A DNA stretch of 64,000 nt from Patescibacteria group bacterium (GTDB lineage Bacteria; Patescibacteriota; Minisyncoccia; Moranbacterales; JAKLHP01): positions 3,092 through 67,091 of the forward strand of contig JAZDKA010000009.1 of NCBI GenBank assembly GCA_043803385.1, written 5' to 3'. The translations under genes were made by a program, and so were the position numbers. Under the pieces are notes generated by a model. The model ran no database searches. It worked only from the letters and a program-made list of their open reading frames with translations, and had not been told where the DNA came from. Shown here piece after piece: positions 3,244-46,052 of this stretch. The stretch's first letter is position 1. Every line of letters begins with the position of its first letter.

Positions 3244-6200
3244 GTGATTTTTATTATCATGTTTAAAAAAATCGATCCAAAAATGAAATTTCCCGAGGTG
3301 GAAAAAGAGATACTGAAGTTTTGGGAAGAAAACAAGATATTTGAAAAGTCAGTTGAAAAAAATCCTGAGGACAACTCTTTTATATTTTACGAAGGTCCGC
3401 CAACGGCTAATGGTGTGCCGGGGCTTCACCATGTCTTAGCCCGGGCTTTTAAAGATATTATTCCAAGATACAAGACCATGAAAGGCTATCGAGTGGAAAG
3501 AAAAGCCGGTTGGGATACTCACGGGCTTCCGGTTGAAATCCAAGTCGAGAAAGAATTAGGAATCCATCAAAAATCCGAAATTGAAAATATTGTTCCGGGA
3601 AATCCAAGAGAAAGCATCATTGAGTTTAACAAGAAATGTAAAGAATCAGTTTGGAAATTTAAGGATTTATGGGAACAAATGACTAGAAGGATGGGATATT
3701 GGGTGGATATGGAACATCCTTATATTACTTATGAAAATAAATACATTGAATCGGTCTGGTGGGTGATAGCACAAATTGCCAAGCTAAAAACAGAAAAAGG
3801 CGAACCGGTTTTATATCAAGGGCATAAAGTTATTCCCTATTGTTACCGATGCGGAACAGCGCTTTCTTCGCATGAAGTCGCGCAAGGATACCAGAAAGTG
3901 AAAGACAATTCAGTTTTTGTAAAATTTCATTTAAAACTTGGACAAAAGTGGGCGGGGGAAAAATACGAGACAAAAGAATCAGTCTATGCGCTTGTCTGGA
4001 CAACTACGCCGTGGACATTGCCTGGCAATGTTGCATTAGCAGTTAATGAAAACATTTCTTATACCGCATTAAGAATAAATGGCATAAAAGAGCTGATAAT
4101 CTTAGCTAGTGATCAAGTTAAGAATATTCTAAGCGATAAAGATATTGAAATTATTCATAATGATATCAAGGGGAAAGATTTATTGGGTCTTGAATATGAA
4201 CCGCTTTATAAAACTAATAATACTGATAAAAAAGCTTATTATGTAATTTCCGGAGATTTTATCACCACTCAAGAAGGAACGAGCATTGTCCATATTGCTC
4301 CGGCTTTTGGGGAGGATGATTCTAATGTTGGTAGGGAAAACGATTTGCCAACACTTTCTACTGTTGATATTGAGGGAAAAATAATTAAAGGAATGAATAT
4401 TCCTGGAGAAGGTATTCCCGTAAAGAAAAAAAATGACAAAAATAAATATGAAGTTGATAATTTAATCATTGAAGATTTAAAGAATAGAAAATTATTATTC
4501 AAAGAAGAACTTTATGAGCATGATTATCCTTTCTGCTGGAGATGTGATACCCCTCTCATTTATTATGCCAAACCGTCGTGGTTTGTCCGAATGAGCGCAT
4601 TCAGAGAAATACTCGAAAAAAATAATCAAAATATAAATTGGATTCCGGAATATATCAAAGAAGGAAGATTTGGCGAGTGGCTTCGCGATGCCAAAGACTG
4701 GGCGATTTCAAGAGACCGATATTGGGGAACCCCGCTTCCGATTTGGAAATGTAAAGAATGCGGGAAAATAAAAGTTGTTGAATCAGTCGATGAAATAAAA
4801 GAACAGCTGGGAAATCCGAATAAATTATTTTTAATCCGCCACGGAGAAGCGGAGAATAATATTGAGGAAATTATTAGTTGTTTCCCCGAAAAAATCGATT
4901 ATCATCTTACTCCGAAAGGAAAAGAACAAATTAAAACAGTAGCTGAGCAATTTAGAAGTGTAAAGATTTCTGCTATATATTCCTCTCCACTTAAGCGCGC
5001 ACAAGAAACAGCCGAGATTATTTCCCAGATTACTGGAGCTGAAGTTATTATTGATGATCGTATCAGGGAGATGGATCTTAACGGGTTAAATGGAATAAAA
5101 ACAGATGATTTCAGAAAAATATATCTAAATGAAATACTTAATTTGAATACCGATGAACATGGAGTAGAAGGTTATAATCAGGCAGCAGAAAGATTAAAAT
5201 CATTTGTTAGCAATATAAACGAAAAATATCAAAGTGAGAATATAATAATTATATCACATGGAAATCCGCTGAAAGTTTTAGAAGGAATATGCAATGGCAA
5301 GAAAATAGAAGAATTAAAAAATGATACATATCTTGGAAAAGGAGAAATTAGAACCGTATATTCCAAATTATTTGATTTGCATAAACCATATATTGATGAA
5401 ATAACTTTCAAATGCGAATGCGGAGGAGAAATGAAAAGAGAATCGGAAGTGATGGATGTTTGGTTTGATTCCGGCTCAATGCCGACCGCCCAATTCCATT
5501 ATCCATTTGGCGCATCAAAAGAAGACAAGGAAAAAATCGAAAGTGGTAAATTCTATCCGGCGGATTTTATTTCCGAAGCGATTGATCAGACTAGAGGATG
5601 GTTTTACACTCTGCATGCAATTTCTACCCTCTTAAATGCGAACAAAAAAGTTCCGACCGGGCTTGCCTTTAAAAATGTAATTTGTTTGGGTCATGTTCTT
5701 GACGCACAAGGAAAGAAAATGAGCAAATCCAAAGGGAATATTATTGATCCGATGGAAGTGATGGATAAATACGGAGCCGATATACTCCGCTGGATGTTAT
5801 ACACGATAAATCAGCCCGGACTTCCTAAAAGATTTGATATCAAGAAAATGAACGAAATCATGAATCGGGTTTTCCGAATGCTTTGGAATTCGTATTCGTT
5901 TTTTGTGATGTATGCGAATATAGATAAATTCAAGCCAGTGAACAGTGAACAGGGAACAGGGAACAGTAAAAATTTATTAGACAAGTGGATTTTGTCAGAG
6001 CTTCAGGTTTTAATAAAAAATGTTGACGAAAAATTAAATAAATATGATATTTATAATGCTGGAAATTTAATCGAAAAATTCATTGATAATCTTTCCAACT
6101 GGTATATCCGCCGAAGCAGAAAGAGATTCTGGAAAAGCGAGAATGACGCAGATAAAAATGAAGCCTATCAAACTTTGCATTATGTCCTAGTTGAACTTTC

Positions 6201-6957
6201 AAAATTAATGGCGCCGTTTACGCCGTTTATCTCCGAAGAGATTTATCGAAATCTAGTTGCCCCTCACCCCAACCCTCTCCCAGAGGGAGAGGGGGGTGTT
6301 GTGTCTGTACATCTAGCTGATTTTCCCAAAGCGGATGAAAGCTTGATTGATGAGAAATTGAATGGGGAAATGAAATTGGTTCGCAACATAGTAACTCAAA
6401 ATCTAGAAGTGCGTGCAGCATCAAGAATAAAAGTTCGTCAGCCGCTAAATACGTTATTGATTTCTGGATATGAATTTAATAAAAATTTATTGGAAATTAT
6501 TTCTAATGAAGTAAATGTAAAAAAATGTGTTGTATCAGATGAGTCTGGCATTGAAGACGCAGAGAAAAAGGGATATATAAAGAGAGTTTTCTTTGATGAA
6601 TCTATCCAACAAGGAAAAAGATATTCTATTCAGGAGCCAATTAAACCAAGTCAGGCAGGCGTTAGGTTAAGCACTGCTTTAGACACCGAAATTACCGAAG
6701 ACCTGAAGCTTGAAGGGCAAGCTCGGGAAATTATTCGCCATATCCAGGAAATGCGGAAAGAAGCAGGCTTTGAAGTTGACAACCGGATAAAAATAGGATA
6801 TATTGGAATGTCTAAGGTTTTTGATAAATTTAGTTCCTTGATAACCAAAGAAACTTTGGCTGAAAATATGGATCTTGAAATTATAGAAGAATGTGATCTT
6901 AAGAAAGAATTTAAGATCGATGGAGAAAAATTAGAACTAAGTATCAAAAAAATATAA
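3244..6957 (+). CDS. ileS: Isoleucyl-tRNA synthetase carrying an inserted histidine-phosphatase (PGAM-like) domain and a 20-aa palindromic mini-insertion
   Basis: HIGH-like PTANGVPGLHHV, TTTPWTLP editing motif, CWRC zinc knuckle, KMSKS. Residues ~528-715 (LFLIRHGE...IIISHGNPL) match histidine-phosphatase branch-1 motifs. They lie between the WKCKEC and FKCECG cysteine pairs. Confidence 0.9.
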   Translation: MIFIIMFKKIDPKMKFPEVEKEILKFWEENKIFEKSVEKNPEDNSFIFYEGPPTANGVPGLHHVLARAFKDIIPRYKTMKGYRVERKAGWDTHGLPVEIQVEKELGIHQKSEIENIVPGNPRESIIEFNKKCKESVWKFKDLWEQMTRRMGYWVDMEHPYITYENKYIESVWWVIAQIAKLKTEKGEPVLYQGHKVIPYCYRCGTALSSHEVAQGYQKVKDNSVFVKFHLKLGQKWAGEKYETKESVYALVWTTTPWTLPGNVALAVNENISYTALRINGIKELIILASDQVKNILSDKDIEIIHNDIKGKDLLGLEYEPLYKTNNTDKKAYYVISGDFITTQEGTSIVHIAPAFGEDDSNVGRENDLPTLSTVDIEGKIIKGMNIPGEGIPVKKKNDKNKYEVDNLIIEDLKNRKLLFKEELYEHDYPFCWRCDTPLIYYAKPSWFVRMSAFREILEKNNQNINWIPEYIKEGRFGEWLRDAKDWAISRDRYWGTPLPIWKCKECGKIKVVESVDEIKEQLGNPNKLFLIRHGEAENNIEEIISCFPEKIDYHLTPKGKEQIKTVAEQFRSVKISAIYSSPLKRAQETAEIISQITGAEVIIDDRIREMDLNGLNGIKTDDFRKIYLNEILNLNTDEHGVEGYNQAAERLKSFVSNINEKYQSENIIIISHGNPLKVLEGICNGKKIEELKNDTYLGKGEIRTVYSKLFDLHKPYIDEITFKCECGGEMKRESEVMDVWFDSGSMPTAQFHYPFGASKEDKEKIESGKFYPADFISEAIDQTRGWFYTLHAISTLLNANKKVPTGLAFKNVICLGHVLDAQGKKMSKSKGNIIDPMEVMDKYGADILRWMLYTINQPGLPKRFDIKKMNEIMNRVFRMLWNSYSFFVMYANIDKFKPVNSEQGTGNSKNLLDKWILSELQVLIKNVDEKLNKYDIYNAGNLIEKFIDNLSNWYIRRSRKRFWKSENDADKNEAYQTLHYVLVELSKLMAPFTPFISEEIYRNLVAPHPNPLPEGEGGVVSVHLADFPKADESLIDEKLNGEMKLVRNIVTQNLEVRAASRIKVRQPLNTLLISGYEFNKNLLEIISNEVNVKKCVVSDESGIEDAEKKGYIKRVFFDESIQQGKRYSIQEPIKPSQAGVRLSTALDTEITEDLKLEGQAREIIRHIQEMRKEAGFEVDNRIKIGYIGMSKVFDKFSSLITKETLAENMDLEIIEECDLKKEFKIDGEKLELSIKKI

Positions 6958-6968
6958 AGGGGGTATTT

Positions 6969-7139
6969 ATGACAGTATATATCTGGGGATCATTGTTTGC
7001 GGGAGTACTTTTCATATCGTTGCTCTTTAAAACCTTTGGATTGAAGTGCCCAAAATGCAAGAGCAGCAATGTGAAATACATTGCAGGCAGAAATGTTATT
7101 CACTGCAACAAATGCAGAAAAGCATATTATGCAAATTAA
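6969..7139 (+). CDS. Small membrane-anchored zinc-ribbon protein (56 aa). Not in the ORF track (below its size cutoff)
   Basis: AAGGGGG SD 6 nt upstream of the ATG. One TM helix then CPKC...CNKC. Paralog of the next gene. Confidence 0.5.
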   Translation: MTVYIWGSLFAGVLFISLLFKTFGLKCPKCKSSNVKYIAGRNVIHCNKCRKAYYAN

Positions 7140-7149
7140 GGAGGTTAAG

Positions 7150-7311
7150 ATGAACTTTTGGTCAAGTCAGTTGTTTAATCTACTGGTAGGTATAATCGTA
7201 TTTGCTATAGGAATTTTTGGCATTTGCAAGCCGCATGAGTGTCCCAAATGCGGAAAACATATACTTTTCCATAATCCGTGGAAGAGACACGAATGTGCGC
7301 CGGGAGGATAA
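7150..7311 (+). CDS. Small membrane-anchored zinc-ribbon protein (paralog of 6969..7139)
   Basis: AAGGAGG SD, TM helix, CPKC...HEC. The track ORF 7081 starts at TTG; ATG 7150 with the SD is the likelier start. Confidence 0.55.
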   Translation: MNFWSSQLFNLLVGIIVFAIGIFGICKPHECPKCGKHILFHNPWKRHECAPGG

Positions 7312-7321
7312 GAGTTTTCAT

Positions 7322-7355
7322 GCCCAACCTTAGAAGTTTCAAGGTTGGGCGTTTT
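7322..7355 (+). terminator. Rho-independent terminator
   Basis: GCCCAACCTT-loop-AAGGTTGGGC followed by GTTTT. Confidence 0.7.
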
Positions 7356-7371
7356 AATTTATAATGAATAT

Positions 7372-8088
7372 ATGGACTACAAATATACAGGCATAATTTT
7401 GAATAAGAAAGACGTTGGCGAAACCGACCGGATTTATACTATTTATACTTTAGAATCCGGAAAAATCATGGTTTTGGCCAAAAGCGTCCGCAAAGCCAAT
7501 GCAAAACTAGCCGGATTTCTGGAAAACTTTACTTTGGCGGAAATCTTTATTGCCAAGAGCCAGGGAATGGGAAAGATTACCGGTTCTCTGGTAATCAACA
7601 ATTTTCCCAAAATGCGGGAAAATCTTGAAGCGGTCGGAAGTGTTTTTAAATCTACGGAACTTTTGAATAAACTGATCAAGGACGAAAACGATGACCCAAA
7701 AATATTCGAGCTTCTCAAGGAATACCTCGAAACAATGAATAATCTGGATAGCCAGGAAGATAATTTCAAATTGGAAATAATTTCTTTGGGTTTTATTTTC
7801 AAGCTTCTTGAAGAATTGGGATATAAAATAGAAGCGAATAATTGCTTGGAATGCGGGGAGAAAATAAAAGAAGGGAACAACTTTTTCGATCCGGAGCAGG
7901 GCGGGATATTGTGCGGAAAATGTTATCCGAACATCAGAAAAGGCATTAAAATAAACTCCAATTCAATAAAAATATTAAGGATTTTTTTCCAAAACAGCCT
8001 AAAGTCTCTTCTTAAACTCAAAGCTGACAAAAAAGATATCGATAACTTGAAAATCGTAAAACAAGAATTCTTGCGTTGGGTAGAGTAG
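7372..8088 (+). CDS. recO: DNA repair protein RecO
   Basis: YKYTGIIL...E.DRI OB-fold N-terminus. C-terminal CLECG...CGKC zinc finger. Likely start is ATG 7372 (track ORF begins at TTG 7345 inside the terminator). Confidence 0.75.
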   Translation: MDYKYTGIILNKKDVGETDRIYTIYTLESGKIMVLAKSVRKANAKLAGFLENFTLAEIFIAKSQGMGKITGSLVINNFPKMRENLEAVGSVFKSTELLNKLIKDENDDPKIFELLKEYLETMNNLDSQEDNFKLEIISLGFIFKLLEELGYKIEANNCLECGEKIKEGNNFFDPEQGGILCGKCYPNIRKGIKINSNSIKILRIFFQNSLKSLLKLKADKKDIDNLKIVKQEFLRWVE

Positions 8089-13988: not shown

Positions 13989-14239
13989 AAACCAATATTT
14001 TTGATAGTTCATCCCCCACCACTTTTTCTTGTAAATAGTAATTTATGGAAAAATTTAGTCTAACTAGGAAATTTCGAGTGAAAGTGGTGGGGGACAAGAA
14101 ATAAAAATAAATAAAAAACAAAAAACTAAAGACAAAATTCTTTGTCTTTGCCCTTCGAGGGCAAACAATAGCAAATCAAATCCCGAGAAATCGGGATTTT
14201 TGCTTGAAATAACTTACTTATTAAGCTATACTATCAGAT

Positions 14240-15535
14240 ATGGAATATTTTGAGATTATTGGGGGAAAAAAGCTGAAAGGCGCGATTGAAGTCAGGGGAT
14301 CTAAGAACGCCACTACCCCTATTTTGGCAGCTTGTCTTCTAACCAAAGAAAAATGCGTAATTTCCAACATTCCTCTAATTGAGGATGTTTTTAGAATGCT
14401 CGAGATTATTGGGAGCTTGAGCGCTAAAGTTTCATGGAAAGGAAAAAGAACTATTGAAATCGAAGCCAAGAATGTTGATGCTTCAAAAATGGATCTGGTG
14501 GCGGTAAAAAAGCTTCGTTCTTCGATATTGCTGTTAGGCGCTCTTTCCGGAAGACTGGAAAATTTTAAAATTCCTTATCCCGGAGGATGCACTATTGGAG
14601 CCAGACCACTCGATACTCATTTCGATGCTCTTTCGAAGATGGGGGTAAAGATAAGAGATAAGAGATTCGGGATAGAGATAGAGAAGAATAAAAAAATAGA
14701 TTGTTATGAGGTTAATGCAAGAGGCAGGCATAGTAATTCGATAGTTCTTAAAGAATTTTCAGTTACCGGAACGGAGAATGCGATGATGCTAGCCGCTTCT
14801 ATCCCTGGAAAAACTGTAATAAAAATAGCAGCTTCTGAACCGCATGTTGAAGACCTGGGAAAATTTTTGATAAAAATGGGGGCTGAAATAAAAGGATTAG
14901 GAACGCATACTTTGGAAATTTGGGGAAACAAGAATCTTAAAGGAATTAGACATGATGTTATTCCCGATGCCAATGAAGCGGCAACCTTTCTGATTATGGG
15001 CGTAGCCACCAGAAGTCCGATTGTTGTCAAAAATGCCAGAAGAGATCATCTGGATTTGGTTTTGGAGAAACTCAAGGAATTCGGAGCTAATTTTAAAATA
15101 AAAGGAAATAGCATCCAGGTTATTCCTCCGAAACTAATCAAAGCTGTTTCCAAAGTCGATACTCGTCCATATCCCGGAATTCCGACCGACGCTCAAGCTC
15201 CATTTGGAGTTTTGGCAACGCAAGCCAAAGGAAAAACATTTATTCACGATTCATTATATGAAGGACGCTTTAACTATATTTCTGAAATAGAAAAAATGGG
15301 AGCCAAGGCCAAAGTGCTGGATGTCCATCGGGCAATTATTCAAGGACCGACAAAACTCAAGGGGAAAACAATAGAAAGCTTTGATCTTCGGGCTGGCGCA
15401 TCTCTTATAATCGCGGCTCTGGTCGCAGAGGGTAAAACTATTATCCAAAATATTTATCAAGTAGACAGGGGATATGAACGCATAGAAGAGAGATTATCGA
15501 AGTTGGGAGCGGAGATAAAGAGAATAACTAAATAA
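14240..15535 (+). CDS. murA: UDP-N-acetylglucosamine 1-carboxyvinyltransferase
   Basis: MEYFEIIGGKKLKGAIEVRGSKNATTPILAACLL plus conserved C-terminal DRGYE..E.L..LGA. Confidence 0.95.
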   Translation: MEYFEIIGGKKLKGAIEVRGSKNATTPILAACLLTKEKCVISNIPLIEDVFRMLEIIGSLSAKVSWKGKRTIEIEAKNVDASKMDLVAVKKLRSSILLLGALSGRLENFKIPYPGGCTIGARPLDTHFDALSKMGVKIRDKRFGIEIEKNKKIDCYEVNARGRHSNSIVLKEFSVTGTENAMMLAASIPGKTVIKIAASEPHVEDLGKFLIKMGAEIKGLGTHTLEIWGNKNLKGIRHDVIPDANEAATFLIMGVATRSPIVVKNARRDHLDLVLEKLKEFGANFKIKGNSIQVIPPKLIKAVSKVDTRPYPGIPTDAQAPFGVLATQAKGKTFIHDSLYEGRFNYISEIEKMGAKAKVLDVHRAIIQGPTKLKGKTIESFDLRAGASLIIAALVAEGKTIIQNIYQVDRGYERIEERLSKLGAEIKRITK

Positions 15536-22142: not shown

Positions 22143-23858
<1,716 letters not shown>

Positions 23859-25367: not shown

Positions 25368-25507
25368 CGATACGAACAATACGAACTATCATACGAATAT
25401 AACGAACAGTTCGCAGCATTCGTATTTACCCTGTTAAATCCCGCTAAGCGGGACGACCTCGTTGTATTCAACAGGGTGAATTCGTAGATTAGTGTCGCTA
25501 TAAATTT

Positions 25508-27265
25508 ATGAGAATTGAAAGTGAACGCCTTAGGGATTTCATACTAGACGCTAATCTTATAGACAAGGATAAGCTTGAGGAAGCTTATTCTGCTGCAACT
25601 AAGGAGGGAAAGCATTTGGGAGATCTTTTGCTGGAGAAAAAAATAGTGAGTGATATAGAACTTAGAAAACTATACGCATATATTTTAGGAATTCCTTATG
25701 TTGATTTGAGAAAAAATATAATATCTCCTGATATTTTACAAATTGTTCCCGAGCCCATTGCCAAAAAATACAACATTGTCGCCTTTGAAAAAATAGGAAA
25801 CGATCTCAAAGTCGCGATGCTTAATCCCGAAAATCTTCAGATCATAGACTTTATCAAAAAAAAGACTGGACTAAAAATTGTTCCCTGCCTGACTTCACTC
25901 GATAGCATTAAAGCGGTAATAAAGCAATATGAAAAAAGTCTTAAAGCTGAATTTGGAGACATAATAGAAAAAAGTTCACAGGAAATAACGGGACAAACCG
26001 AAGAGGAAAAAGAAAAAGATCTTGAAGAAATAGCCCAGGGACTTCCGGTAATCCGGATAATTGACACCTTACTTAAACATGCCATTTTGCAATCTGCCAG
26101 TGATATCCACATAGAACCCTGCGAAAAAGAGGTGATAGTGCGTTATAGGATAGATGGCATTCTTCACGACGCAATGACGCTTCCCCGAGAAGTTCTTTCG
26201 GGAATTGTAGCCAGGATTAAGGTATTATCTAATTTGAAATTAGATGAGCATCGGCTTCCTCAAGACGGAAGATTTAAAATCGAAAATGAAAATTATAAAT
26301 TCTCTCTGCGTGTAAGCATACTTCCTGTTTTTGACGGAGAGAAGGTTGTCATGAGACTTCTAGACGAATCATCTAAGGGTCTGACTCTGGAAAAAATGGG
26401 ACTTTCCGGAAAATCTTTAGAGATAGTCCACCAGGAAATTAAAAGGCCCAATGGGATGGTCTTGGTTACCGGGCCGACTGGAAGCGGAAAAACTACGACT
26501 CTCTATACCGTGATGGACATAATTAATACTCCGGATGTCAATATCAGCACCGTTGAAGACCCGATAGAGTACAGAATGCCAAGAGTAAATCAGACCCAAG
26601 TCAATCCTAAAATAGGCATGACTTTCGCTTCAGCGTTAAGGTCTTTGGTCCGCCAAGACCCAGATATTATTATGGTTGGAGAAATTAGGGACAAAGAAAC
26701 TCTGGAAATTGCCATTCACTCAGCGCTTACGGGACATCTAGTGCTTTCTACTCTTCACACCAATAGTGCCGCTGGAGCTCTCCCTAGGATGATAGATATG
26801 GGAGCGGAACCCTTTCTCATTGCTTCAACAGTTAATGTGATTATTGCCCAAAGATTGGTAAGAAAGCTTTGTCCTGAATGCAAAGCGGAATATACTTTGA
26901 CGGAAAAAGAAATAAAAACGCTAAAAAATACAGTCAATGTTGATGGAATTATGGAATATATGAAAAAAGAAAATGAATTGAGCAAAATAGTCAAATCAGC
27001 TAGCAGTTTGTCTGATATTAAATTTTATAAGCCGAAAGGATGTGATCAATGCGGAAATGAAGGATACCATGGAAGAATTGGTATTTTTGAGGTTTTGGAT
27101 GTCAATGAAGATATTGAAAAAATGATAGTGGGACTAGCTTCAACGGAAACAATTGAGAGAAAAGCAAAGGAAAATGGAATGGCCACAATGATCGAAGATG
27201 GATTTGCCAAGGCAGTCCAAGGAATAACTTCAATTGAGGAAGTTTTGAGAGTAACCAAGGAATAA
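25508..27265 (+). CDS. pilB: Type IV pilus assembly ATPase PilB (GspE family)
   Basis: GSPII_E N-domain, VTGPTGSGKTTTLY Walker A, Asp and His boxes, CxxC...CxxC. Confidence 0.9.
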   Translation: MRIESERLRDFILDANLIDKDKLEEAYSAATKEGKHLGDLLLEKKIVSDIELRKLYAYILGIPYVDLRKNIISPDILQIVPEPIAKKYNIVAFEKIGNDLKVAMLNPENLQIIDFIKKKTGLKIVPCLTSLDSIKAVIKQYEKSLKAEFGDIIEKSSQEITGQTEEEKEKDLEEIAQGLPVIRIIDTLLKHAILQSASDIHIEPCEKEVIVRYRIDGILHDAMTLPREVLSGIVARIKVLSNLKLDEHRLPQDGRFKIENENYKFSLRVSILPVFDGEKVVMRLLDESSKGLTLEKMGLSGKSLEIVHQEIKRPNGMVLVTGPTGSGKTTTLYTVMDIINTPDVNISTVEDPIEYRMPRVNQTQVNPKIGMTFASALRSLVRQDPDIIMVGEIRDKETLEIAIHSALTGHLVLSTLHTNSAAGALPRMIDMGAEPFLIASTVNVIIAQRLVRKLCPECKAEYTLTEKEIKTLKNTVNVDGIMEYMKKENELSKIVKSASSLSDIKFYKPKGCDQCGNEGYHGRIGIFEVLDVNEDIEKMIVGLASTETIERKAKENGMATMIEDGFAKAVQGITSIEEVLRVTKE

Positions 27266-27403
27266 ATACGAAATACGAAATCCGAAGCACGAAACAAATT
27301 CAAAATTATAATTTTTGAATAACCAAAACATTTTTGTCATTTGAATTTAGATATTGGATATTGTTTCGAATTTCGAGTTTTGATATTCGGATTTAAAATC
27401 GTT

Positions 27404-28624
27404 ATGCCTAAATTTTATTTTACCGCGAAAAGCTTCGATGGAAAATTTCGAGATGGAGAAGCTGAAGCAAGGGATGAAAGGACATTGGCTCAAAGTCTCC
27501 GAAGCGAGGGTTTTTTGATGACATCCATAAAATCTCTGAGTTCCGAGAAGAAAGAAGCAGGAATAAAATTCCTTGATCGTTTTTTTGGCGTTCCCCTTAA
27601 AGAAAAAATGATGTTTGCCAGAAATTTGAGCGTTATGATTGCTTCAGGACTTCCTATTTCCAAAGGAATCAAAAATCTTTCAATCCAGACAAAAAATAAA
27701 AAATTTAAAAAAATACTCGTGGAAATAAATGAAGAATTGCAGAAAGGAACGTCTCTCAATGAAAGCCTCAAAAAATATCCGGCTGTTTTTAGCGATTTGT
27801 TTGTAAGCATGGTAAAGGTAGGCGAAACTGGCGGAACTTTAGAGGAAACTTTGAATATGGTCGCTACTCAATTGGAAAAGGAGCATGATCTTATAAGCAA
27901 AATAAGAGGCGCAATGATGTATCCTTCGGTTATTCTTGTAGCAATGACAGGGATAGGAATATTGATGATAACTTTTATACTGCCAAAGCTCATGGGAGTT
28001 TTCAAGGATATGAACGTAGATTTGCCTCCAACGACGAAAGCAATGATTGGTATCAGCGATTTTTTGAGGAATCATAGCATAATATCAGTGATTTCCTTTT
28101 TAATATTTCTCATAGTTATGAAATTATTTTGGGGCTCAAGGTCCGGAAAAAAGTTTTTTGGGCTTGTCGCAATAAAGCTTCCCTTAATAAAAAACATTAT
28201 AATCAAAGTGAATTGCGCACGTTTCGCCAGAATTTATAGTTCGCTTCTGAAAAGCGGAATCTCAGTCATTGACGCCTTGAAAATATGCTCCGATACTCTA
28301 GGAAATTATTATTATAAAAAAGCAATAAATGACAGCATAGACAAGGTGCAAAAGGGCATAGCCCTAAGCAACATTATTTCTTCTTATCCCAATATTTTTC
28401 CTCCCCTGGTTTATCAAATGGTCGAAGTAGGCGAAGAAACCGGAAAGATAGAAGCAGTTCTGATGAAACTGGCTGAATTTTACGAAGAAGAAGTCGAACA
28501 AATTACCAAGAACATGTCTTCCATCATAGAGCCGGTTCTCATGCTTATTATTGGGTCTGCGGTAGGACTTTTTGCAGTGTCGATGCTTCAGCCAATGTAT
28601 AGCTTGATGGACAATATTAAATAG
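27404..28624 (+). CDS. pilC: Type IV pilus platform protein PilC (GspF family)
   Basis: Two GspF repeats, polytopic membrane protein. Likely start MPKFYF at 27404. Confidence 0.85.
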   Translation: MPKFYFTAKSFDGKFRDGEAEARDERTLAQSLRSEGFLMTSIKSLSSEKKEAGIKFLDRFFGVPLKEKMMFARNLSVMIASGLPISKGIKNLSIQTKNKKFKKILVEINEELQKGTSLNESLKKYPAVFSDLFVSMVKVGETGGTLEETLNMVATQLEKEHDLISKIRGAMMYPSVILVAMTGIGILMITFILPKLMGVFKDMNVDLPPTTKAMIGISDFLRNHSIISVISFLIFLIVMKLFWGSRSGKKFFGLVAIKLPLIKNIIIKVNCARFARIYSSLLKSGISVIDALKICSDTLGNYYYKKAINDSIDKVQKGIALSNIISSYPNIFPPLVYQMVEVGEETGKIEAVLMKLAEFYEEEVEQITKNMSSIIEPVLMLIIGSAVGLFAVSMLQPMYSLMDNIK

Positions 28625-28720
28625 TATTTAGTATATCGTATCCAGTATCTAGTATTATTTTTTTATAAAATAATTATTTTGCTAAGTAATATCGGATACT
28701 GCGTATGACAATTTTTATTT

Positions 28721-30130
28721 ATGATACAAAATACTAAATACAAAATACTAAATACAAAAAATGGTTTTACCATCATTGAAGCGCTGGTCTTGCTTTTTAT
28801 TTTTTGCCTAGTTACAGTAAGTTTTTATTCAACTCTCACACTGGGGTTAAGGTATATTCAGGATTCCAAGAATCGCTTGGGTGCCACTGCCTTGGCTAAC
28901 GAAAGAATGGAAATTGTAAGGAATTTAAAATATGATAGTATCGGGACAGAAGGAGGAGAGATCGAAGGGAATATTCTTCAAGATGAGAACGTTGCTGAAA
29001 ATACTAGGCAATACTCTGTCCATACTCTGGTTGAATACGTGGACGATCCGATCGATGGGCTGGCAGGCGAGGATTCTGCATGGTGGGCTGATTATAAAAG
29101 GGTTACAATCACTGTCTCTTGGAATAATAGCAATTTATCTAATGGCAAGGTAGTTCTTTCTTCTTTTTTTCCTCCTCCTGGACGGGAGGTCCAGCATCTT
29201 GGAGACGGAATACTTTCAGTGAATGTCTGCAGTGATCAAGGAGAAAAAAAAGGAGTTCCCGATTCTTACGTCCATATACAAAATTCAGAGACAGGGTTAA
29301 ATACCGGAAAAGACACAGATACTTCCGGCTACGCGGTTTTTATGGGAAGCAATGTGAGGGATTCAGTCCAAAAATACGAAATAACGGCGAGCAAGGATGG
29401 ATACGAAACGGTAAGCACGATGCCTCCTTATCCGATAACTTCCTATATTCCGGATTTTCCTCATGCTACTGTTATTACCGCGGGCGGGGCAGTTAATGTG
29501 GCCTATATTATTCAGAATAAATTAGCAGAAAATCTCACCATTTTTACCGAAAATTATCTCGGAGAATCTTTGCCCAATATAGATTTTCACTTGATAGGAG
29601 GGAAAAAAATAGGAAAGCAGCCAGCCGAGCCTTTTGACGCTGTCTATAATCTTGATTCCAATGAAAAAACTAATGGAGATGGAAAAAAGGATTTAGGCGC
29701 GGTAAGTCCGGGAGACTACACTTTTTCTCTTGTCAATCCTGCGCTTGCAAACTATGAAATAATATCAGCTGACCCTTATTTGCAATCCGGTTCTTCTTTT
29801 GAGCAATTTAGTCTTTCTTCTGACCAATCTCTAAATTTCAAAATCAAATTGGCTAGTAAAAGCGAAACCTCTATTTTAGTTAAAGTTGTAGACACCAATA
29901 GTTCTCCGATTTCCGGAGCGCAGGTAAAGTTAAGCAATACTAGCGGATACGATATTACGCAATCTACAACGAGCGAAGGCAATGCATTTTTCCCTACCAC
30001 GAGCGATTTATTTGCCAGCGGTACGTATGATCTCAAAGTGACAGCTGATGGTTTTCAGGATAATGATTCCCAGGTAATAATTAGCACGAATCAGCTAAAA
30101 GTAGAAACAATAACTTTGTTAGCTCCATAA
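28721..30130 (+). CDS. Prepilin-type protein (class III signal) with two carboxypeptidase-regulatory-like beta-sandwich domains
   Basis: Leader MIQNTKYKILNTKNG|FTIIEALV (G|F...E+5 prepilin cleavage motif). Tandem ATACTAAATACAAA repeat inside the leader. Confidence 0.7.
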   Translation: MIQNTKYKILNTKNGFTIIEALVLLFIFCLVTVSFYSTLTLGLRYIQDSKNRLGATALANERMEIVRNLKYDSIGTEGGEIEGNILQDENVAENTRQYSVHTLVEYVDDPIDGLAGEDSAWWADYKRVTITVSWNNSNLSNGKVVLSSFFPPPGREVQHLGDGILSVNVCSDQGEKKGVPDSYVHIQNSETGLNTGKDTDTSGYAVFMGSNVRDSVQKYEITASKDGYETVSTMPPYPITSYIPDFPHATVITAGGAVNVAYIIQNKLAENLTIFTENYLGESLPNIDFHLIGGKKIGKQPAEPFDAVYNLDSNEKTNGDGKKDLGAVSPGDYTFSLVNPALANYEIISADPYLQSGSSFEQFSLSSDQSLNFKIKLASKSETSILVKVVDTNSSPISGAQVKLSNTSGYDITQSTTSEGNAFFPTTSDLFASGTYDLKVTADGFQDNDSQVIISTNQLKVETITLLAP

Positions 30131-30131
30131 A

Positions 30132-30782
30132 ATGATTCTTAGAAAAAAATCACAATTTAAGCGGGGACTTACGCTGGTTGAAATGCTGGTAGCCATAGCG
30201 ATTTTTGTCATCGGAATGGAAGGATTTACTCTGCTTTTTACCCGGACTTGGAAAGCCAATTCTTACACATTGGAAATGGGGCAGTCGTCCATGGCGGTTT
30301 CCCAAGGGCTAAGCAAAACAGTGAATTATATTCGCGGAGCCAGGCAGGCAGATAATGGTTCTTATCCAATAAAATCAGCTAGCGATAATGATTTTGTTAT
30401 TTACTCTGATTATAACAAGGACGGAATAACGGAAAGATTGCATTTTTACAAAAATAATCAAAATATTTTGATGGGAGTTACAAATCCTACAGGTGCAATA
30501 CCTAAGACATATCCTTCTGGAGACCAGCAAATAATCACTATCGCCAGCTATATCGTGAACGATGCCAATACGCCGATCTTTTATTATTACAACAAAGATT
30601 ATCCCGGAGATGCTGAAAATAATCCAATGAGCGCTCCGATAGACATTTCAAAAATCCGGTTAATGAAAATATATCTGAAAATAAACATAAATCCCAATAG
30701 GACTCCTGATAATATCGAAATGCAATCTTTTGTGGAAATTAGAAATCTTAATGATTATGACAAAGTTGGAAGTCAAAGTTAA
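30132..30782 (+). CDS. Prepilin-type pseudopilin/minor pilin
   Basis: KRG|LTLVEMLVAIAIF class III signal. Confidence 0.8.
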   Translation: MILRKKSQFKRGLTLVEMLVAIAIFVIGMEGFTLLFTRTWKANSYTLEMGQSSMAVSQGLSKTVNYIRGARQADNGSYPIKSASDNDFVIYSDYNKDGITERLHFYKNNQNILMGVTNPTGAIPKTYPSGDQQIITIASYIVNDANTPIFYYYNKDYPGDAENNPMSAPIDISKIRLMKIYLKININPNRTPDNIEMQSFVEIRNLNDYDKVGSQS

Positions 30783-32205
30783 AAAAAATAATAAAAAGGG
30801 TTCGGCTTTAGCTTATGCCCTGGTTATCATAGCTATCGTTATGATCATTTTGGTGTCTATGCTGGGATATGTCGTTTCCCAATTAAAATTCAGCTTTAAC
30901 CGAGCGGAAAGGGAAAAGGCTTTTCAAATAGCTGAAGCCGGAGCCTACTATTACCGCTGGTATTTGGCCTATGAAACTTCCGGAAAAACACCCCTGGACC
31001 TTGAAAATTTTTGGCAGGGCGGAACAGCCCTGGGAACATCAGTTCCTTATCCGGAAATAGATTATGGAGGAATAGGCAAATATAAGCTTGAAGTTACTGC
31101 CCCGCAGCCAGGATCAACGATTGTGATTGTAAAGTCAACCGGATGGACATACAAAGAACCGAATACGAAAAGAATTGTACAGGTGAGATTTCGAAGGCCT
31201 TCCTGGAGTGAATATGTAATGCTGAGTGAAAGCTTTATTAACGTGGGAAGCCAAGCTGAAATCTACGGGAAAATGCATTCAAACACGGGAATACGCTTTG
31301 ACGGTAAAGCATATAACGTGATAAGCTCGCTTCCTTATTCTTTTGATGATCCTTCTCATGGAAGCCATAGTTTGGAATTCGGGGTCCATACCCATGATAC
31401 TCCAACTGATCCCTTAGCTCCAGATTATCCATGGCCGGAAGGTACTGTTCCGGATCGTGCCGATGTCTTTACAGCCGGAAGGGAATTTCCAGTTCCGGAA
31501 GTGAGCTTTAGCGGTGTTTCTTCTAGTTTTACCACCATGGAAAGCGCAGCCAATGGCGGTCATGGGCAATATTTTGATTCAACTGGATTCGGGAGAAGGA
31601 TTATCCTTAAAACTAACGGAACTTTTGACATTTGTACGGTGAATTCTTATCAAAGCGGCTCTTTTGCTATCAGTTCGCATAATGGGTACAAAAAAAGCAG
31701 CGGAAGCGGGACATGTGATACCTGCAGCGGGCAGTGTTTAAGCAATTATTCCATTCCCGATAACGGAGTAATCTATGTGAATGATAATATTTGGGTGGAG
31801 GGAACTATAAATGATAAAAGAGTGACTATAGCGGCAGGCGGAAGCCAATCCGATATTTATATCGGAATGAACAATATCCGTTATACAAATTACGATGGAA
31901 GCGACATAATAGGATTGGCAGCTAGGCGTGATATAACTGTTATCAAAGATTGTCCCGATAATTTTATTGTTGACGCGGCTTTAATTGCCCAATCGGGACA
32001 GGTGGGAATATGCCAGAATTTTACTAGCAAGAACTCAATTACCCTTAACGGAGCTTTAGCATCATTCCTCCAGCCTTTTATGGTTCATGGATCAAGCGGT
32101 TTTGGTGAAAGAACATATAATTTTGATAATAATCTTTTGTATTTTCCTCCCCCGTATTTTCCAACAGGCACAGAGTATTCCATAGATTTGTGGGAAGAGT
32201 TATAA
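30730..32205 (+). CDS. PilX-N-like minor pilin/tip protein with beta-helix-like C-region
   Basis: KKGSALAYALVIIAIVMIIL PilX_N-like hydrophobic segment. Likely start near 30757. Confidence 0.5.
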   Translation: MWKLEILMIMTKLEVKVKKNNKKGSALAYALVIIAIVMIILVSMLGYVVSQLKFSFNRAEREKAFQIAEAGAYYYRWYLAYETSGKTPLDLENFWQGGTALGTSVPYPEIDYGGIGKYKLEVTAPQPGSTIVIVKSTGWTYKEPNTKRIVQVRFRRPSWSEYVMLSESFINVGSQAEIYGKMHSNTGIRFDGKAYNVISSLPYSFDDPSHGSHSLEFGVHTHDTPTDPLAPDYPWPEGTVPDRADVFTAGREFPVPEVSFSGVSSSFTTMESAANGGHGQYFDSTGFGRRIILKTNGTFDICTVNSYQSGSFAISSHNGYKKSSGSGTCDTCSGQCLSNYSIPDNGVIYVNDNIWVEGTINDKRVTIAAGGSQSDIYIGMNNIRYTNYDGSDIIGLAARRDITVIKDCPDNFIVDAALIAQSGQVGICQNFTSKNSITLNGALASFLQPFMVHGSSGFGERTYNFDNNLLYFPPPYFPTGTEYSIDLWEEL

Positions 32206-32309
32206 TATAATTGTTTCATATAACACATAGCATAAAACACGGAACATTTTAATTTAAAAATTATAAAAATTAAATGTTATTATGTTCCATGCTTTATGTT
32301 TCATGATTT

Positions 32310-43475: not shown

Positions 43476-45902
43476 TTATTTTTCTATTTCTATTGCCAGC
43501 TTTTTTGAATCAATAAGCCCTATTTCTTCGGCATGGGAAAGATTTTTGAGATCACTGGAAATTTTTTTAACGAATTCACTTTCAGTCCCGATAGCCAGTT
43601 TTTTAAATGATTCCCCGAGTTTTATGCCTTTTTCGGCCTTAATTCTTCGAATTTCAGCTATTGTTTCCAGAATTATTTTTCCATTCTCCAGATAATTTTT
43701 ACTTTCGAATTCTTTATTTTCCTTTGGCCAAGCGCTTATATGGATTGAAATTGAGTTATCGCTACTAATGAAGAATTGCTGATAAATTTCTTCGCTAACA
43801 TGGGGAAGCATCGGAGCAAAAAGTTTTATCAAAGTGCTTATAGCTGAATATAAAGTAAATTGAGCAGATAATTTTATTTTTTTATCTTCCCCGTAAAGCC
43901 TTCCTTTTATAAGCTCGATATAATTGTCAGCGAATTTTATCCAGAAAAAATGTTCCAGAAGAGTTTTGGCTTTGGCGAATTCATAATTTTCAAACTGCTC
44001 GGTTACGTTTTTGATGAGTTCTTGGAGTTCGGCTAATATCCAAGCATCCGCTTCACATAAATCTTCCGCATTAATAAAAGTTTTTCGATTATAATCTTCG
44101 AGATTCATCATCACAAATCTAGTAGCATTCCATAATTTAGTCAGAAGTTTCTGTCCGGCTCGCATATCATCTTCACTGAAGCGGAGATTCATTCCCAGCG
44201 TTGCTCCGCAGGACCAGAAGCGAAGGGCATCAGCGCTGTATCTTTCAATCATACTCTCGGCGGTTATGAAATTATTAAGCGATTTGCTCATCTTTTCTCC
44301 ATTTCTTGCCAGCCCCCAGCCGGAAATCATTACATTTTTCCAAGGAATAGAATTAGTATTGAGATGCGATTTTACCAAAGTATAAAAAAGCCAGGTTCTG
44401 ATTATTTCAAATCCCTGAACCCGGAGGCTCATGGGATAAATATTTTTTTCATCTTTTTCTTTCCAATGATTATTAATAAGCGGAGTAGTGGAAGAAGTAG
44501 CCCAGGTATCCATTACTTGCGTTTCTCCTTTAATCTTTTTGCTTTGGCATTTTGAGCAAACCGGATTTTTTGGAAGATTTTCCCGAGGATCAACCGGAAG
44601 CTCATTATCTTTAGGCAAGATTATTTCTCCGCAGTTTTCGCAGTACCAAATTGGAAAAGGAACTCCGTAAAACCTATCGCGGGAAACGCACCAATCCCAT
44701 TTGAGTCCGTCAATCCAGTTGTCCAGCTGGACTTTCATAAATTTCGGATACCAATTCAATTCTTCTCCCCGTTTTTTGAACGCGTCCTTTATGTCCAAGA
44801 TCTTAATAAACCATTGCGGAGAAACAAAAAAATCTATCGGATGTTTGCATCGTTCATGAATATTCAATGTGTGGATAATTTCCATTTTATTTTTCAGAAG
44901 TCCTGATTCCTCCAAATCTTTAATTATCTCTTCGCGGGCATTGCTAAGTTTCATACCTTGGTATTTTCCTCCTTTTTCATTTACTCTTCCGCTTTTATCT
45001 ATAATTAGCTTAGTTTCCAGCTTATCTGCCTTCCATTTTTCAATGTCTTCCGTGTCTCCCCAGGTGCAAACCATCATAAGTCCGGTACCCTTGTCCATTT
45101 CAACGTCTTTGCTGGTTTTAACCGGTATTTTTGCTTCCATTAAAGGAGAAATGGCATATCCTCTGGCATATTTTTTGTATCGAGAATCATCGGGATTGAC
45201 ATATAAAGCCACGCAAGCAGGAATTAATTCTGGCCTGGTTGTGGAAATTATGGCCGGATCTCCATTTTCAAACTTGAATTCAATATCATACATCAATGAT
45301 TTTTCTTCTTTATCTTCAAGATCTGCCTGGGCCAGCGATGTCTGGCACTGGGTGCACCAAAAAGTAGGAGATTCTTCGCGATAAACTCTTCCCTTTTTAT
45401 ACAAATCAATAAAAGATCGCTGGGATATTTTTTGGGAAAGCGGGCTGATGGTGGAATAAAGAAGAGACCAGTCAACGCTTAAGCCCAAGCTCTTCCAAAT
45501 TTCTTCATATTTTTTCCCGCCTTCTTTTGTTTCCTTAAGGCAAAGCTCGACGAATTCTTTCTGGGTAATTTTTGATTTGTCCACTTTGTATTTCTTTTCG
45601 ACAAATCTTTCGGTCGGAAGCCCATTGTCATCAAAACCCATCGGATAGAAAACATTCTCGCCTTTCATCCGGTGGTAGCGGATAATAATTTCCGCCTGGG
45701 CATAGCTCATAGCGTGTCCAGTATGGAGCGAATCGGAGCTGATATACGGCGGGGGAGTATCGACGGAAAAAACAGGTTTTTTTGAATTCTCATCAAATTT
45801 ATAAATTCCTTCTTTTTCCCAGAAATCCTGCCATTTTTTTTCGGATTTTTTCGGATCGTAATTTTTTGGAAGTTCTTTATTCATATGGGTTAATGTTAAC
45901 AA
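43476..45902 (-). CDS. valS: Valyl-tRNA synthetase (compact form)
   Basis: HTGHA (HIGH), TTRPE editing-domain motif, KMSKS. No C-terminal coiled coil. Confidence 0.8.
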   Translation of the reverse strand: MLTLTHMNKELPKNYDPKKSEKKWQDFWEKEGIYKFDENSKKPVFSVDTPPPYISSDSLHTGHAMSYAQAEIIIRYHRMKGENVFYPMGFDDNGLPTERFVEKKYKVDKSKITQKEFVELCLKETKEGGKKYEEIWKSLGLSVDWSLLYSTISPLSQKISQRSFIDLYKKGRVYREESPTFWCTQCQTSLAQADLEDKEEKSLMYDIEFKFENGDPAIISTTRPELIPACVALYVNPDDSRYKKYARGYAISPLMEAKIPVKTSKDVEMDKGTGLMMVCTWGDTEDIEKWKADKLETKLIIDKSGRVNEKGGKYQGMKLSNAREEIIKDLEESGLLKNKMEIIHTLNIHERCKHPIDFFVSPQWFIKILDIKDAFKKRGEELNWYPKFMKVQLDNWIDGLKWDWCVSRDRFYGVPFPIWYCENCGEIILPKDNELPVDPRENLPKNPVCSKCQSKKIKGETQVMDTWATSSTTPLINNHWKEKDEKNIYPMSLRVQGFEIIRTWLFYTLVKSHLNTNSIPWKNVMISGWGLARNGEKMSKSLNNFITAESMIERYSADALRFWSCGATLGMNLRFSEDDMRAGQKLLTKLWNATRFVMMNLEDYNRKTFINAEDLCEADAWILAELQELIKNVTEQFENYEFAKAKTLLEHFFWIKFADNYIELIKGRLYGEDKKIKLSAQFTLYSAISTLIKLFAPMLPHVSEEIYQQFFISSDNSISIHISAWPKENKEFESKNYLENGKIILETIAEIRRIKAEKGIKLGESFKKLAIGTESEFVKKISSDLKNLSHAEEIGLIDSKKLAIEIEK

Positions 45903-46052
45903 GGAATGAAGTATTTTTCAAGGATTATCGTATCGATTTTACAAAAAAATAACAATGGTGGTATGATTGATATACAAGAATAGTAAAATTCATTGGGTTT
46001 TTCTGTAGTATTGCATATGCAAAATAAGCTATCTAGAGGGAGGTGATACAAT

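Follow-up and report, generated by a model that had tools for sequence, protein, structure and literature searches.

Aminoacyl-tRNA synthetases are among the best-catalogued enzymes, and accessory domains nested within those of class Ia are already known. The editing domain of connective peptide 1 (CP1), the connective peptides CP2 and CP3, the INS subdomain of type-2 isoleucyl-tRNA synthetase (IleRS2) and the N-acetyltransferase of the GNAT-IleRS proteins described by model NF040702 are all folded, sometimes catalytic modules, carried in frame with aminoacylation kept. Nested catalytic domains beyond editing are very rare. We analysed a stretch of 64,000 nucleotides from a member of the Moranbacterales (Patescibacteria group bacterium, assembly GCA_043803385.1, contig JAZDKA010000009.1, positions 3,092 to 67,091), hereafter the window, in which the isoleucyl-tRNA synthetase (IleRS) gene, ileS, holds a histidine-phosphatase domain within the CP3 loop. 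This domain, hereafter the insert, resembles the known modules in being folded and in frame, with aminoacylation kept. It differs from CP1 in that one of two near-identical orthologues may have it and the other lack it. What is new here is a recombining phosphatase cassette at CP3, widespread in the Candidate Phyla Radiation (CPR).

The described enzymes that most resemble the insert are small phosphatases of broad specificity or acting on phospho-metabolites: PhoE/YhfR (1H2E, 1EBB), iPSP1/PspA from Hydrogenobacter (4IJ5) and the alpha-ribazole phosphatase CobC (6E4B, 6NRU). They share its fold, its catalytic set R-H...R...E...H, its size (~180-210 aa) and its short cap. All of these enzymes are free-standing, whereas the insert lies within the CP3 loop of its class Ia host and is only ~25% identical to them; their signature is RHGETxWN, that of the clade of embedded domains RHGEAExN. 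The mycobacterial bifunctional RNase H/acid phosphatase (PRK07238; Rv2228c type) likewise joins a CobC-like branch-1 phosphatase to a nucleic-acid enzyme. It is, however, an end-to-end fusion with a different partner, and the nested insert, which matches the phosphatase half only, scores 86 bits where the cut-off is 326. Inteins and other mobile in-frame insertions also occupy conserved sites of essential genes and are patchy among close relatives; unlike them, the insert lacks a Hint fold, splicing residues and a homing endonuclease, and it would stay in the mature protein with its predicted active site kept. A phosphatase is absent from the domain table of AARS Online and from the 2023 and 2026 papers on IleRS evolution, and full-text literature searching, which covered recent papers on IleRS structure and evolution, found no description of a histidine phosphatase within a synthetase.

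The nested phosphatase domain and its closest kin

The landmarks of the host gene and of the insert are given below, in window coordinates.

3244..6957, + strand: ileS, type-2 IleRS, 1237 codons from GTG; TIGR00392 939 bits against a cut-off of 621; closest PDB relative 1ILE
3421..3432, + strand: class I signature in the swapped form GLHH (G/AXHH instead of HXGH), aa 60-63; aligns with HVGH of 1ILE
4696..4728, + strand: CP2-CP3 linker DWAISRDRYWG; CP3 begins right behind it
4750..4761, + strand: CP3 zinc knuckle, first Cys pair, C503/C506; left edge of the recombining tract in relatives
4762..4824, + strand: left linker GKIKVVESVDEIKEQLGNPNK, in the form specific to the long allele (insert-less alleles: ...ELExLSGQKLE)
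4825..5373, + strand: nested histidine-phosphatase branch-1 domain, aa 528-710, 183 aa; net insertion relative to insert-less orthologues
4837..4845, + strand: RHG motif with R532, H533 (predicted phospho-accepting nucleophile) and G534; Arg and His in 85/85 embedded domains
4996..4998, + strand: R585, second phosphate-binding Arg (SPLKRAQET); 85/85
5068..5070, + strand: E609, predicted proton donor (RIREMD); Glu in 83/85, Asp in 2/85
5257..5259, + strand: H672, second catalytic His (IIISHGN); 85/85
5374..5397, + strand: IleRS CP3 motif DLHKPYID, right after the insert
5413..5421, + strand: CP3 zinc knuckle, second Cys pair, C724/C726; right edge of the recombining tract in relatives
5716..5730, + strand: KMSKS loop, intact, aa 825

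A sequence-only reading of this DNA had proposed that a branch-1 histidine phosphatase is nested in frame between the Cys pairs of the zinc knuckle, within an open reading frame (ORF) of 1237 aa. Both the ORF and the motifs were found in place: the Cys-pair motifs WKCKECG and FKCECGG at aa 501 and 722 (nt 4744 and 5407) and, between them, LFLIRHGEAENN and IIISHGNPL at aa 528 and 668 (nt 4825 and 5245). The Pfam hidden Markov model His_Phos_1 (PF00300) matches aa 528-691 (nt 4825-5316) with E=2.7e-36 and 125.5 bits (cut-off 21.7), which bears the proposal out. As to its limits, 4825-5400, the start holds and the end does not: the domain closes at 5373, and 5400 takes in the IleRS motif DLHKPYID. 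In relatives the start codon is an ATG that corresponds to codon 6 here (nt 3259), so the true product probably has 1232 aa.

The synthetase around the insert is otherwise canonical in alignment to relatives, as had also been claimed. Besides His_Phos_1, Pfam finds tRNA-synt_1 (E=7e-112), Anticodon_1 and, at the C-terminus, DUF5915. The TIGR00392 score, the GLHH and KMSKS motifs, DUF5915 and the best match in the PDB, IleRS of Thermus thermophilus (1ILE, E=2e-242), place the protein in IleRS2. GLHH is invariant across 109 relatives; the G/AXHH type of the class I signature has been described (PMC10485003), and it renders IleRS2 hyper-resistant to mupirocin (Brkic et al. 2023). Aligned to 1ILE, the insertion point falls between T. 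thermophilus residues 483 and 487, inside the region Cys461/464...Cys502/504, which is the zinc-binding CP3 subdomain whose topology varies among species (PMC7191050). The insert lies within the catalytic domain, ~115 residues ahead of KMSKS.

The insert has the complete catalytic set R-H...R...E...H of the branch-1 core. The 85 embedded domains share just 25-40% identity, yet both Arg and both His are invariant among them. The insert is AT-richer than the remaining ileS (GC 0.313 versus 0.365; GC at third codon positions, GC3, 0.21 versus 0.33), and among stretches of the same length elsewhere in ileS only 1.6% are as low. Its isoelectric point (pI) is 5.3, with a median of 6.0 among the embedded domains.

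The sequence-only reading had likened the insert to SixA and to cofactor-dependent phosphoglycerate mutase (dPGM), a likeness that did not hold up: all dPGM cut-offs were failed, and other families lie closer. Among NCBIfam models, that of the archaeal short dPGM family, NF038349, matches best (E=1.2e-34), with 119.9 bits against a cut-off of 225. Scores fall below the cut-offs for the other dPGM equivalogs too (GpmB, 68 versus 261; TIGR01258, 35 versus 81.7), as well as for CobC (TIGR03162, 88.7 versus 162.9), PspA (NF045917, 91.7 versus 350) and SixA (TIGR00249, 40.3 versus 74.5 bits, the match being limited to the N-terminal 70 residues). Model NF040702 reaches 317 bits of 1999, and matches the synthetase part only. 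In dPGM, as in E. coli GpmA, the substrate is held by E-R-H-Y-G after the catalytic Glu, by an Arg-Arg pair and by a C-terminal tail. None of these three features is present in an alignment of 19 inserts, where the segment after the Glu reads R-x-x-E-x3-G-x2-[N/E]-G, as in phosphatases of the PhoE/CobC type. Because every equivalog score is below its cut-off and the segment after the Glu is of phosphatase type, we file the insert in the superfamily and in no characterised family.

Predicted structures point the same way. An AlphaFold 2 model of the insert with short flanks has a mean predicted local distance difference test (pLDDT) of 88 and a predicted template modelling (pTM) score of 0.85. 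Foldseek places the metal-independent phosphoserine phosphatase iPSP1 (4IJ6/4IJ5) first among PDB matches and finds PhoE/YhfR 1H2E at a root mean square deviation of 2.2 A across 184 columns, together with a histidine phosphatase of the riboflavin pathway, the monomeric phosphoglycerate mutase (PGM) of S. pombe (sixth), mycobacterial glucosyl-3-phosphoglycerate phosphatase and CobC. The alpha/beta fold is that of the dPGM/PhoE type, with a Foldseek probability of 1.00 to 1H2E, 4IJ5 and 1FZT and template modelling scores of 0.67-0.75. A phmmer search of the insert against PDB sequences recovered the same families. By sequence and predicted fold, then, the closest kin of the insert are the small phosphatases of PhoE/YhfR, iPSP1/PspA and CobC type. 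The full-length protein (aa 6-1200, modelled from a 109-sequence alignment) has a pLDDT of 87 and a pTM of 0.79; its 10-residue blocks are mostly at 89-98 within the insert, with two cap blocks at 78 and 83, and at 80 or above in the linkers. As both insert and linker blocks are confident in this model, the nested domain is predicted to fold without disturbing CP3.

These comparisons bear on a reading in which the insert is a glycolytic enzyme, a cofactor-dependent phosphoglycerate mutase masked by one-gene-one-function annotation, which would explain the gaps in Parcubacteria. NF038349 is indeed the top NCBIfam match, the S. pombe PGM appears sixth in the fold search, and the tandem copies described below could boost enzyme dosage. 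PGM has been reported absent from several shallow Parcubacteria clades, possibly through divergence (Jaffe et al. 2020, PMC7304191). Against this, the NF038349 score is far from its cut-off and the remaining dPGM equivalogs score far lower, the segment after the Glu is of phosphatase type, with neither the Arg-Arg pair nor the C-terminal tail, and the insert is missing in close relatives. We therefore consider a hidden mutase very unlikely.

Spread of the architecture and exchange of the cassette

A full-length search returned 18 relatives with PF00300 (1150-1256 aa, 58-70% identity, 97-100% coverage) from ENA, JGI, NCBI and Logan assemblies; the named ones are all Moranbacteria (organism labels here and below are those of the deposited records). 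The sequence-only reading had asked whether related genomes carry the same fusion, an absence from all relatives being the mark of a chimeric join. The fusion is present in these 18 Moranbacteria and beyond, so this mark is lacking. With the alignment of 19 inserts we scanned one genome per GTDB species and obtained 269 confirmed relatives. The best 80 of these 269 loci include 67 IleRS ORFs of 525-1339 aa that hold the domain, 56 of them full-length (1073-1339 aa) and 11 cut by contig ends or frame breaks. Their records are labelled Moraniibacteriota, Paceibacterota, Taylor-, Zambryski-, Nomura-, Yonath-, Ryan-, Adler-, Lipton- and Lloydbacteria, Microgenomates, Peregrinibacteria, "Saccharibacteria" and unclassified Patescibacteria. 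The motif HKPYID is recognisable in 62 of the 67 ORFs, and the domain lies directly upstream of it in all 62; the upstream knuckle motif P-[IVLM]-W-x-C is missing in 19 of these 62. In the 43 ORFs with both anchors, CP3 and insert together measure 221-249 aa, mostly 229-238 aa.

Searched exhaustively with HMMER, 1.84 billion cluster representatives yielded 494 matches at E<=1e-30. Of the 150 best, 97 are IleRS (11 with two copies of the domain), 4 are valyl-tRNA synthetases (ValRS) and 49 are host-less proteins. Among the ValRS, P0348 is genuine (848.8 bits versus a cut-off of 704); its two His_Phos domains are inserted where the homologous IleRS position is CP3. P0241 (four copies) and P0361 (two) match ValRS best, below the equivalog cut-offs, and are apparently truncated; P0378 (one copy) is a ValRS by phmmer score only. 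Copies in tandem arrays mostly retain the full catalytic set. The valS of the window's own genome serves as an internal control.

43476..45917, - strand: valS, 812 aa, no His_Phos insert; PRK13208 1029.7 bits against a cut-off of 738

The architecture is widespread in IleRS of CPR/Patescibacteria and occurs also in ValRS. The sequence-only reading had called it unusual, which is correct relative to described synthetases and incorrect as regards rarity. Across much of CPR, which makes up a large part of bacterial diversity, the catalytic domain of IleRS (and ValRS) houses a second enzyme whose predicted active site is intact.

A different account would hold the insert to be an assembly chimera, a frameshift artefact, an intein or a functionless selfish element maintained in frame. 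An insert-only search of a word index had returned only stand-alone phosphatases (<=44% identity), as if the fusion were a singleton; the full-length and exhaustive searches show this to be a limit of the index. The low GC3 of the insert (0.21 versus 0.33 in the rest of ileS) and the cassette-like mobility described below would also fit this account. However, the same in-frame architecture, at the same site, recurs in hundreds of independent assemblies, which refutes a chimera, and the catalytic residues are invariant at 25-40% identity. Flanking direct repeats are only short and AT-rich, and the breakpoints lie in conserved host sequence, as ordinary homologous recombination predicts. The insert was judged not intein-like from the start, and this stands: Pfam finds no Hint, intein or endonuclease family, and the junctions, ...NPNK|LFLI... 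and ...SKLF|DLHK..., have neither Cys/Ser on the N side nor His-Asn on the C side. We regard this whole group of explanations as extremely improbable.

Among Moranbacteria, insert-bearing and insert-less enzymes are intermingled. In a neighbour-joining (NJ) tree of the synthetase backbone, with insert columns removed, the 19 insert-bearing IleRS are scattered among ~100 insert-less ones, and most of them adjoin an insert-less sister with identity up to 94%. The clearest pair is P0123 (with insert) and P0138 (without). Their loci are syntenic (dnaE, rnhB, fic, argS, GT4, ileS, CAP, response regulator, recO, CLIPPER), and their ileS DNA is ~97% identical except in the stretch from just past the CxxC codons to the CxC codons. 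The pairs L003/L084 (~92% identical) and L085/L086 (~83-87%) show the same clean pattern of presence and absence; L085 and L086 share a syntenic locus, and the contig of L084 is too short to judge. We had considered that these might be paralogues, with one long and one short ileS per genome. For the pairs examined this was rejected, since the long and the short form come from different assemblies and are found there at one and the same syntenic locus; the 64-kb window has no second ileS.

The divergence in amino acids between alleles is confined to ~20 residues on either side of the insert, where the conserved linker is specific to the state (EIKEQLGNPNK in long alleles, ELExLSGQKLE in short ones). 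Elsewhere in the backbone, beyond the swapped tract, no position shows an association with the insert state. Mean identity among the 19 Moranbacteria proteins is 43% in the insert versus 74% in the backbone, so the insert evolves faster, and the agreement between insert and host phylogenies is weak (Spearman 0.27). For the insert of P0148, the closest counterpart (51%) lies in a Microgenomates IleRS; the backbones of these two enzymes share just 44% identity, whereas the backbone of P0148 is 87% identical to that of the insert-less P0212. The allele pairs, the scatter on the tree, the linker forms, P0148 and the GC3 of the insert, combined, lead us to conclude that the CP3 cassette is exchanged by homologous recombination, including across lineages. 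These data show that long and short CP3 loops in Moranbacteria are alternative alleles with breakpoints at the conserved Cys-pair sequences, and that some inserts were imported from distant CPR lineages. Such presence/absence alleles in near-identical orthologues constitute a natural experiment and a clean case of domain-level cassette exchange in an essential gene.

Around the insert we found no target-site duplication or flanking repeats beyond short AT-rich matches. A 10-nt pair, GATGAAATAA (at 4789 and 5395), is taken as chance because a deletion between the copies would remove the conserved DLHKPYID.

The phosphatase also exists without the synthetase. Ten stand-alone proteins of ~190 aa form one cluster nested within the embedded clade of Moranbacteria (NJ tree without support values), and 120 other stand-alone phosphatases all fall outside the embedded clade. 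Seven loci of the cluster were examined: in six the gene directly follows argS, and in four it precedes ileS on the same strand by 0.7-1.8 kb. The ileS genes of those four loci are full-length and insert-less in L005, L013 and L018, and cut by the contig end in L031. The split gene that the sequence-only reading had contemplated in relatives thus has a counterpart in these stand-alone forms beside argS and, in some cases, ileS. Each partner occurring without the other, the gene contents compared here show that IleRS and the predicted phosphatase are separable both ways. Sixteen longer stand-alone proteins (~360-450 aa) gave two or three domain matches, although in some of them the matches are parts of one domain.

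Mechanism and candidate substrates

The best explanation, and one we hold to be fairly probable, is that IleRS of CPR carries a nested, exchangeable and autonomous phosphomonoesterase module that is dispensable for aminoacylation. We infer that the phosphatase would be a second, autonomous active site. H533 would attack a phosphomonoester to give a phospho-His intermediate, with the phosphate held by R532, R585 and H672, and E609 would protonate the leaving group. The phosphatase would need no co-adapted surface on the synthetase; a docking surface of this kind was considered and rejected, as no position linked to the insert state lies outside the swapped tract. The domain would hang by short linkers of conserved length from CP3, which starts directly past the linker of the tRNA 3'-end pocket.

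Several points weigh against this explanation. One would expect an autonomous enzyme to be encoded separately or to be fused end to end, and its nesting at one loop in two paralogous synthetases, with conserved linker length, hints at geometric or functional coupling. Complementarity, with a stand-alone copy near each insert-less ileS, is seen at L005, L013 and L018 (and at L031, where ileS is cut), but at four other insert-less loci no gene with PF00300 lies within 10 kb. The trees are neighbour-joining, without bootstrap or other support values. Finally, no NCBIfam equivalog cut-off is reached, and therefore family-level function is not transferable to the insert.

With an autonomous phosphomonoesterase, the substrate class we find most plausible, just short of calling it likely, is a small nucleotide-like or metabolite phosphomonoester; the synthetase would then provide a scaffold and a means of co-expression. 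Less likely, though to be kept in mind, is a phosphate that is handled in cis, at the 3' end of the tRNA or on a nucleotide; a phosphoprotein or regulatory role is improbable, and phosphoglycerate mutase activity more doubtful again. Something else accounts for the remainder. If the insert is a metabolic enzyme, annotation with a single function per gene has hidden it, and metabolic reconstructions of CPR would change.

The substrate handled in cis corresponds to a mechanism of repair followed by charging. Here the phosphatase tethered to CP3 would act on the acceptor end of the tRNA or on a bound adenosine nucleotide and clear a 3'(2')-phosphate or a pyrophosphate remnant that blocks aminoacylation, after which the same enzyme could charge the tRNA; toxin attack can be the trigger, for example by RelA/SpoT-homologue toxins that modify the CCA end. 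The position of the insert speaks for it. CP3 starts right after the linker lining the A76 pocket, and in yeast IleRS the equivalent CP2-3 linker helps to build the pocket that takes up the tRNA 3' end (A76) and reveromycin A (PMC7955072). Among the best 150 representatives the only hosts are IleRS and ValRS, at the homologous CP3 site, and the length of CP3 plus insert is conserved across CPR. In the same direction point the stand-alone form, which stays beside argS and ileS, the hydrolases of nucleotide phosphates in or near ileS of relatives (NUDIX in CP1 of L018, NUDIX in L002, HD_4 in L005) and the patchy, recombining distribution, which fits a trait related to conflict. The NCBIfam "bifunctional RNase H/acid phosphatase", matched at 86 bits, offers a precedent for a His_Phos_1 domain joined to a nucleic-acid enzyme.

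Other observations argue against repair and charging. The domain is not basic (median pI 6.0; 5.3 in the window), close relatives manage without it, protection would reach only tRNAIle or tRNAVal, the ValRS of the window is insert-free, and no PADLOC defence family is matched. To our knowledge, no branch-1 histidine phosphatase acts on RNA 3' ends. On balance we consider this mechanism unlikely. Much the same holds for a broader and slightly bolder form, to which we would give a little less credence, in which CPR class Ia synthetases couple a phosphatase to aminoacylation that either clears a block at the tRNA 3' end or destroys a phosphorylated nucleotide inhibitor or alarmone at the entrance of the active site, the alleles and the NUDIX and HD hydrolases being signs of an arms race. 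If a coupling to tRNA or nucleotide chemistry were true, it would be a new synthetase-linked activity. Membership of the phosphatase in a defence system, taken as a candidate on its own, was rejected for want of a PADLOC match.

The sequence-only reading had suggested that the phosphatase may regulate or moonlight. The insert could be a regulatory or protein-phosphatase module that removes an inhibitory phosphate from the synthetase or a partner (compare HipA/HipT-type kinases acting on GltX and TrpS), or that senses a phospho-metabolite to tune IleRS. The histidine-phosphatase superfamily does include phosphatases of proteins and phospho-His (SixA, PGAM5, Sts), the insert is nested inside the catalytic domain ~115 residues before KMSKS, and a patchy distribution would be in keeping with such a role. 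Its nearest kin, however, are phosphatases of small molecules, with SixA at 40 bits versus 74.5; tandem arrays of 2-4 copies of active type are hard to fit with a regulator in cis, and no backbone position co-varies with the insert state. We find a regulatory module quite improbable, and return to the autonomous phosphomonoesterase as the preferred explanation.

Neighbouring genes and further insertions

In the window, ileS lies in the order GT4 - ileS - recO - CLIPPER/DUF11 protein - tgt, which is common to insert-less and insert-bearing relatives. The gene is probably the one housekeeping copy of ileS in a CPR bacterium of Moranbacteria type. The intervals around ileS differ in content between relatives. 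In L001 and L002, whose ileS genes are ~97% identical, the gap between GT4 and ileS holds a 137-aa ORF of unknown kind (L001 9258-10000) or a NUDIX gene (L002 9263-10000), and at the 3' end of ileS (L001 13067-13567) identity to L002 falls to ~70-80%. These differences point to further mosaic recombination. The NUDIX gene of L002 (9263-9745) is stand-alone, lies immediately upstream of an insert-less ileS and matches the PADLOC candidate family PDC-S07. In L005 the stand-alone phosphatase and ileS are separated by an ORF of the HD_4 family (RelA/SpoT-type hydrolase-like; 7108-7614), whose gene call is uncertain because of an overlap with the start called for ileS. The same interval holds a gene for a 23S rRNA-intervening-sequence protein in L013 (6934-8371) and in L018 (6905-7522), and in L013 also a gene for an Mrr-type restriction endonuclease.

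Insertions at other sites of IleRS were also seen. L018 (8057-11506) encodes a CPR IleRS with a NUDIX hydrolase domain (aa 327-452) and a near-complete Nudix box in the CP1 editing domain, at the variable loop EPLY|KTNN. In several Moranbacteria IleRS (P0124, P0137, P0149, P0186 and P0194) the loop behind EPLY (~nt 4195-4215 in the window) is extended by long insertions, which are unrelated to one another, reach ~100 aa and have no Pfam match; the loop appears to be a second insertion hot spot.

Within the ileS of the window itself there is a GC-rich perfect palindrome, CCCTCTCCC-AGA-GGGAGAGGG, in frame at 6273-6293 (aa 1011-1017, PLPEGEG), shortly before SVHLADFP. Relatives have at this site other P/G/E-rich or different short inserts, or nothing, and pLDDT falls below 50 there in the AlphaFold 2 model of the window protein. 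A search of the window for the 9-nt arm motifs gave no second copy. The element resembles the in-frame palindromic repeat elements of Rickettsia.

Among the loci of relatives, L053 (151-3267) encodes an alpha-2-macroglobulin-like protein with Hint, PT-HINT and Vint matches near aa 144-277, which could be an intein-like insertion. Elsewhere in the window, an EPSP-synthase-family gene lies at 14225-15535 and GroEL at 22143-23858, and 25493-33386 holds a type IV pilus/type II secretion cluster (T2SSE ATPase, T2SSF, PilX-like) of a kind common in CPR episymbionts.

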